From assembly GCF_057098645.1 (NCBI RefSeq), contig NZ_CM169472.1: DNA of 64,000 bases, one strand, 5' to 3'. Shown here in pieces: positions 20,060 to 20,094 of the stretch; within the stretch, counting starts at the first letter, position 1, and the number at the start of each line of letters is the position of its first letter. Position numbers and translations under genes: made by a program. The notes below the pieces were generated by a model. The model made no database searches. It saw nothing but the letters and a program-made list of their open reading frames with translations, and was not told where the DNA came from.

Positions 20060-20094
20060 AAATAGAAACAGAAATAGAAATAGAAATAGAAATA
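20060..20094. repeat. Microsatellite (GAAATA/GAAACA)n
   Basis: aaatagaaacagaaatagaaatagaaatagaaata. Confidence 0.8.

Follow-up and report, generated by a model that had tools for sequence, protein, structure and literature searches.

Short, slippage-variable tandem repeats are found in the promoters of contingency loci: a (TA)n tract lies between the -35 and -10 elements of hifA/hifB in Haemophilus influenzae, and poly-G/C tracts lie in the porA and opc promoters of Neisseria. Another tandem repeat, in Escherichia coli O157, is a marker of MLVA typing and bears several names: TR1 is said to go back to Noller 2003, Vhec4 to Lindstedt 2003, and O157-9 or VNTR-9 to Keys 2005 and PulseNet. Vhec4, TR1 and O157-9 are aliases of one locus (PMC3768571). 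For TR1, work on Irish O157 isolates gives the repeat unit AAATAG and the forward primer ACTGCATGATAAGCCTCAGG (PMC2246123). The forward primer of the PulseNet assay for VNTR-9 is GCGCTGGTTTAGCCATCGCCTTCTTCC, and the published amplicons range from 474 to 614 bp (PMC8461963).

The insertion sequence IS911, of the IS3 family, has terminal inverted repeats of 36 bp, an A6G heptamer that serves as the site of a -1 frameshift, and an OrfA protein whose C-terminal part carries a leucine zipper (PMC2909936). These two systems meet at the locus described here. The window analysed is a stretch of 64,000 nucleotides of contig NZ_CM169472.1 (NCBI RefSeq assembly GCF_057098645.1). It contains a hexanucleotide tract that is the orthologue of the O157 marker TR1/Vhec4/O157-9 (VNTR-9), and the locus is therefore an already known one. 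Very probably, the tract is a hypermutable, slippage-prone and probably neutral VNTR lying in an IS911-like pseudogene. The putative origin of the repeat from an insertion sequence relic and the history of IS30 at the locus are small additions to what is known of this marker.

Sequence and setting of the repeat

The tract is located between an HNH endonuclease gene and a divergently oriented, AT-rich ORF, hereafter the moron:

19299-19865, minus strand: HNH endonuclease gene, left neighbour (Pfam HNH_3, E = 4e-11; PGAP annotation of orthologues)
20060-20094, no strand: hexanucleotide VNTR (AAATAG)5.8, with AAACAG as unit 2 (Tandem Repeats Finder, shuffle control, allele set)
20411-22183, plus strand: 590-aa AT-rich ORF ('moron'), right neighbour (phrog_9230, function unknown)

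Read directly from the letters, the tract consists of AAATAG, AAACAG, three further AAATAG units and a final AAATA. Tandem Repeats Finder reports a period of 6, 5.8 copies, 93% matches, a score of 63 and the consensus AAATAG for these positions. The tract lies 195 bp from the ATG of the HNH gene and 316 bp from the start codon of the moron. It is only 35 bp long and the surrounding DNA is AT-rich, as would suit a chance low-complexity run or an assembly artefact, but the probability of this reading is negligible and it was rejected. A four-unit pattern with at most three mismatches has its sole match in the 64-kb window at the tract itself and matched none of 100 dinucleotide-preserving shuffles, and the tract recurs with its flanks in over 500 complete genomes of E. 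coli as well as 32 IMG/VR contigs. The first-pass annotation had described a hexanucleotide microsatellite, in the register (GAAATA)n, within a divergent spacer, and both points hold: the two genes point away from each other, with HNH starting at 19865 (minus strand) and the 590-aa ORF at 20411 (plus strand), and the tract is between them.

The HNH gene is followed on the minus strand by NinG, a calcineurin-like phosphatase and Q. The locus is the nin region of lambdoid prophages of E. coli (Stx1-type and related). No stx ORF was found in the slot of the window where phage SH2026Stx1 and strain 644-PT8 carry stx1AB, and the window prophage is an stx-negative relative of the Stx1 phages. Downstream of Q (17575-18063), the region 14176-18063 on the minus strand contains a tRNA-Met (17186-17261), a 153-aa ORF (16505-16966) and a 616-aa ORF (14176-16026), the last of which occupies the position of a gene annotated as SASA family carbohydrate esterase in the Stx1 prophage of 644-PT8.

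The moron has a GC content of 35%, against 50% for the whole window. Searches of its product against Pfam, NCBIfam, PADLOC and PDB sequences gave no match, and the only family recovered was phrog_9230 with its split versions in PHROGs. Its Ser/Thr-rich N-terminus contains the motif LTLNDFLDN twice, and the protein also has several hydrophobic stretches. It is conserved among Stx1 phages as well as in many non-O157 prophages.

A putative IS911-like relic in the spacer

Sequence comparison suggests that the spacer between the HNH gene and the moron is an internally deleted, dead IS911-like element of the IS3 family, oriented towards the moron. With the spacer as query, a sensitive blastn search matched IS3-family transposase genes in their thousands, at identities of about 70%. 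The following parts of the presumed element can be aligned:

~19879-20267, plus strand: IS911-like relic (blastn, ~70% identity over 316 bp to IS911/IS3-family elements)
19891-19914, plus strand: inner 24 bp of the IS911 left inverted repeat (24/24 identical to IS911)
19919-20151, plus strand: orfA pseudogene fragment, OrfA residues ~31-98 (BLASTP, DNA alignment)
20095-20103, plus strand: decayed programmed -1 frameshift site (TTAAAACAG in the window, TTAAAAAAG in IS911-type elements, with A AAA AAG)
20152-20234, plus strand: orfB-homologous start segment of ~25 codons, ending at the direct repeat ATACTGGAAAAA
20235-20267, plus strand: right-inverted-repeat-like segment (GGCAAGTTTTTAGTGATAACTATA in the window, GACCAGTTTTTGTTGACCACTACA in an IS3-family element)

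The relic extends from just upstream of the ribosome-binding site of the HNH gene (GGAGG), which adjoins it, to the AT-rich region upstream of the moron. At its left end the inner part of the inverted repeat is preserved and the outer 12 bp (19879-19890) are degenerate, with 5 of 12 positions matching. The orfA fragment is 56% identical to IS911-type OrfA (BLASTP, E = 8e-24) and contains one in-frame stop, the TAA at 19966-19968. Further on, the frameshift heptamer A AAA AAG has decayed to A AAA CAG. In an IS911-type element, orfA codes for a helix-turn-helix and a leucine zipper and precedes this frameshift site and orfB. The 12-mer ATACTGGAAAAA is present twice in intact IS911-type elements, at the start of orfB and near the right inverted repeat, and the internal deletion of the relic joins the orfB start to the right end of the element at this very sequence. 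The right end itself resembles an inverted repeat at 78% identity over 46 bp (blastn, E = 2.5e-4). The edges given for the relic are approximate, the outer left repeat and the right repeat being degenerate.

Set against IS911-type elements, the spacer can be aligned from its left inverted repeat, by way of OrfA residues 31-98 and the opening codons of orfB, as far as the right end, but nucleotide identity is only about 70% and two internal deletions have removed the 5' part of orfA and nearly all of orfB. In addition to the in-frame stop and the mutated slippery site, the relic lacks any intact ORF and the catalytic region of the transposase: when the window was compared by blastn with full-length IS911-type elements, neither the body of orfB nor a DDE catalytic domain was found. 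The relic is homologous to the IS911-type family as a fossil and not as a functional or mobile member. In total, 245 full-length copies (at least 80% query cover) were recovered, all at one type of prophage locus. A dispersed MITE was considered and ruled out, as every match covering at least 80% of the query belongs to this same prophage locus. Among plasmids, which were searched for an intact parent element closer to the relic, the best identity was 71%, apart from one record that carries the same relic.

Origin of the repeat

The tract aligns with the IS911 codons ATT GAA ATG GAG AAT GAA ATA (IEMENEI), immediately 5' of the A6G frameshift heptamer. Its sequence in the ancestral plus-strand frame of the element is (GAA ATA)n, that is (Glu-Ile)n, and the sole gap in the OrfA protein alignment, of four residues, falls exactly at the extra EIEI. 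The leucine zipper in the C-terminal part of IS911 OrfA was reportedly described by Haren et al. 1998. From these alignments we infer that the hexamers arose by expansion of the codons for IEMENEI in the leucine zipper of OrfA. In such a scenario, the IS911-like element would have been pseudogenised and its zipper codons freed from coding selection; the near-periodic codon run would then, after the death of the element, have been homogenised and expanded into (GAA ATA)n, and replication slippage would since have added and removed whole 6-bp units. The relic would thereby offer a concrete case of the birth of a bacterial VNTR, in which a coiled-coil codon run lost its selection, was homogenised and expanded. 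A text search of an incomplete literature collection found nothing that links IS911 with O157 MLVA, and the origin of the TR1/O157-9 repeat in an IS911 relic may not have been pointed out before.

Variation in copy number

The number of copies was compared in 37 alleles, namely the window, four annotated records and 32 IMG/VR contigs, and it ranges from 4.8 to 17.8. Next to the tract, the alleles differ in a second run of letters:

20047-20052, no strand: poly-A run (A6 in the window), A5, A6 or A7 among otherwise near-identical alleles (allele comparison)

Four flank haplotypes can be told apart by the poly-A run of 5, 6 or 7 and by a T/C SNP that is linked to a first unit AAACAG. Every haplotype holds many lengths (4.8-17.8 copies in the C haplotype, 5.8-16.8 in the A6/T haplotype), and therefore many independent slippage events are required. 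Among the alleles that share the pattern of the window, with AAACAG as unit 2, copy numbers of 5.8, 8.8 and 11.8 were found, and in all of them the additional units are on the pure 3' side. The poly-A run a few bases to the left of the VNTR is likewise prone to slippage and shifts the frame of minus-strand ORFs.

Complete RefSeq genomes of E. coli show the same variability. The left flank is present in 523 of them and the full spacer in 244, in which the full-length match to a 601-bp query spans 600-678 bp in steps of 6 bp. This corresponds to about 5.8-18.8 copies, the upper value being implied by match spans and not by counted units. Even strains that are closely related differ: the cattle strains 144 and 150, both at 98.4% identity, have spans of 649 and 643 bp, respectively. 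The first-pass annotation had proposed that slipped-strand events change the length of the tract and had suggested a comparison of repeat number across isolates. The outcome of that comparison is strongly positive, with a length that is anything but invariant. In published passage experiments, Vhec4 underwent about 1.3e-4 changes per generation in vitro (PMC3777172). Clade medians of O157-9 are 9-12 (PMC10062581). All 37 alleles keep at least 4.8 copies, a floor that could reflect recent common ancestry (the flanks are at least ~97% identical) or some constraint.

Identity with the O157 typing marker and insertion of IS30

The correspondence with the typing marker is established by the primer sites and by the junctions with IS30:

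19850-19876, plus strand: PulseNet VNTR-9 forward primer site (0 mismatches; primer from PMC8461963)
19968-19987, plus strand: TR1 forward primer site, Noller scheme (0 mismatches; primer from PMC2246123)
20107-20108, no strand: IS30 insertion point, empty in the window (2-bp target duplication AC; O157:H7-lineage junctions)

Both forward primers anneal close to the left of the tract, at the expected side and distance, and the VNTR-9 site overlaps the start codon and ribosome-binding site of the HNH gene. The reverse primers of TR1 and VNTR-9 have no match in the window with up to three mismatches allowed. Their absence was at first counted against the identity with the MLVA marker but is explained by the insertion sequence: the reverse primers are absent from the window because both sit in the IS30 of O157:H7, which is missing here. 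O157:H7 strain 3384 agrees with the window through the left flank and the repeat and for a further 14 bp, after which IS30 begins with its left end (tgtagattcaattgg...). Both reverse primers are located inside this IS30. Both primer pairs are present at this locus, and the in-silico VNTR-9 amplicon measures 532 bp at 10.8 copies, inside the published range.

In strain SMN013SH2, the other end of IS30 abuts the moron side, again with the target duplication AC. The matching IS30 ends with the same AC duplication therefore indicate one insertion at 20108/20109, followed by rearrangements that parted the two sides. The position of the IS30 junctions in different genomic contexts implies that an IS30-mediated rearrangement removed or relocated the moron side. 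In O157:H7, IS30 thus entered at a distance of 14 bp from the right edge of the repeat, took the place of the moron side and carries the reverse primers. The window has the ancestral, IS30-free arrangement, which is shared by phages SH2026Stx1 and AU6Stx1, the Stx1 prophage of O157 strain 644-PT8 and numerous strains outside O157. Another IS30 match proved to be an unrelated IS30 remnant.

The window and the typing marker thus have in common the repeat unit AAATAG, an identical left flank with the HNH gene and the sites of both forward primers, the 14 bp that directly follow the repeat, and a like behaviour, with gain and loss of whole units and many alleles. They differ in that the window has no IS30, its sequence running on into the remainder of the IS911-like relic and the 590-aa moron, and in that its allele is short (5.8 copies) with an internal AAACAG unit. 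The window is the orthologue of the repeat in an IS30-free context, distinct from the amplifiable assay locus. With neither IS30 nor reverse primer sites in the window, standard PCR assays would therefore score a null allele. Many non-O157 strains have the same repeat, free of IS30, in their Stx1-type and related prophages, which explains MLVA null alleles, and typing could in principle also be affected in O157 strains that have two copies of the left flank. The practical value of these observations is small, and the tract opens no new biological question.

Possible functions of the tract

The first-pass annotation had further supposed that length changes could alter the spacing of a promoter of the moron or of the HNH gene, and this was not borne out. 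The promoter scan covered sigma-70 consensus sites only. Between 19700 and 20600 it found a single sigma-70-like site, on the plus strand at 20281-20310, where 3.5 would be expected by chance; this site is 187 bp beyond the tract, just outside the relic, and no more than 8 of the 34 alleles with the moron context have its exact motif. A second scan count gave none against 3.0 expected by chance. No promoter-like site was found by the same consensus scan in phage SH2026Stx1 or at the O157:H7 locus. In the three alleles scanned (window, SH2026Stx1 and O157:H7), no sigma-70-like -35/-10 pair spans or abuts the tract, and none was found on the HNH strand. The HNH gene lies within a co-oriented block, NinB-Dam-NinE ... 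HNH-NinG-(NinH or phosphatase)-Q. In lambdoid phages, the nin gene block is read from pR under N antitermination. By analogy, HNH would be read from pR as part of the nin block.

Regulatory, coding and RNA-level roles of the tract are unlikely even when taken together. A contingency repeat, whose slippage would tune expression of the moron or HNH by altering promoter distance, helical phase or an AT-rich platform for H-NS, Fis or IHF, would fit the location of a highly length-variable tract in a divergent spacer beside an AT-rich, horizontally acquired gene (the GC content falls to 26% at 20246-20410), and each 6-bp step would shift the helical phase by about 0.57 turn. It is nevertheless very unlikely in view of the scan results, with promoter-like sites below chance and the only one in the window remote and seldom conserved, and of the place of HNH in an operon-like block. 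The tract would moreover be inherited from an insertion sequence pseudogene and not built into a promoter, and its variability is undiminished in O157:H7, where IS30 parts it from any moron. Like the tracts of hifA/hifB and porA/opc, it is a short, slippage-variable tandem repeat in a divergent intergenic region; theirs, however, are inside the promoter core, where units change the -35/-10 spacing, whereas no promoter-like hexamer pair accompanies the present one. Known repeats of the promoter-spacer or contingency class are placed between -35 and -10, directly at a regulator site or within the 5' part of a genuine coding sequence. Still less likely is a co-option of the IS-derived tract as a length-variable AT-rich platform, acting as an H-NS/Fis nucleation site or a phase spacer that tunes silencing of the moron or of HNH-NinG-Q. 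If true, the locus would be a prophage contingency locus that originated in a run of leucine-zipper codons of a transposase, with silencing tuned within a population.

Two minus-strand ORFs cross the tract:

19925-20152, minus strand: (Phe-Leu)n ORF, 75 aa, judged spurious (runs through the repeat)
20016-20162, minus strand: (Ile-Ser)n ORF, 48 aa, judged spurious (PGAP hypothetical protein in longer alleles)

These ORFs, the calling of the (Ile-Ser)n frame by PGAP in longer alleles and a unit length that is a multiple of 3, by which expansions keep the frame, would suit a coding repeat, by which a small protein acquires a run of (Ile-Ser)n or (Phe-Leu)n that varies in length. Such a coding role ranks lower again in likelihood: neither ORF matches a Pfam or PHROGs family or has a recognisable Shine-Dalgarno sequence before its start codon, near-identical alleles differ by 1-bp indels in two homopolymer runs, one of them the poly-A run and the other at CTAAACAA, which exchange the frames and alter the C- or N-termini, the IS30 insertion removes both start codons in O157:H7, and the region seems to descend from the opposite strand of an insertion sequence gene. 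An RNA element is credited with the same low likelihood. It would consist of a G-poor (CUAUUU)n upstream of HNH, in the delayed-early (pR-type) transcript, that acts as a Rho/Hfq-type platform or as a translational spacer and modulates HNH, NinG and Q. By analogy with lambda, the gene order suggests that the tract is transcribed on the minus strand in the nin-region message, and the transcript would be U/C-rich and unstructured. Against it, the minus-strand fold is no more stable than that of shuffled sequences (z = +0.62), and in the Rfam search of 19500-20700 the sole match, to SmY (E = 0.8), is no better than chance, scoring 16.7 bits where the gathering score is 39. The HNH start is 195 nt away, and nothing in the tract is specific to Rho or Hfq, which makes the proposal pure conjecture.

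The absence of promoter, coding and RNA signals favours the reading of the tract as a probably neutral VNTR. Its equal variability in O157:H7, where IS30 severs it from the moron, and elsewhere was counted as evidence against function, as were the frame swaps of the minus-strand ORFs and their truncation by IS30. The 'hypothetical proteins' that PGAP predicts across the tract are almost certainly spurious, an annotation artefact that calls for caution among annotators. RefSeq WP_001430471.1, of the (Ile-Ser)n type, is one protein that PGAP calls through the VNTR in long enough alleles (4167-4349, minus strand, in one annotated record).

Other repeats in the window

A 162-bp tandem repeat at 3887-4641 (4.7 copies, 94% matches, units of 54 aa) lies inside a 461-aa ORF (3421-4806, minus strand) directly downstream of the portal gene (4803-6167). 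The Pfam matches of this ORF are weak and probably spurious. In the 5' end of the HNH gene, an imperfect direct repeat of 20 bp in two copies (19807-19847, Tandem Repeats Finder score 52) is probably due to chance. At 26236-26313, repeats of 39 bp in 2 copies or 20 bp in 3.8 copies, of the TCCCTC..GAGGGA type, are found inside a 312-aa ORF (25722-26660, minus strand); they look like lambdoid origin iterons in an O-like replication gene and are considered as candidates only.
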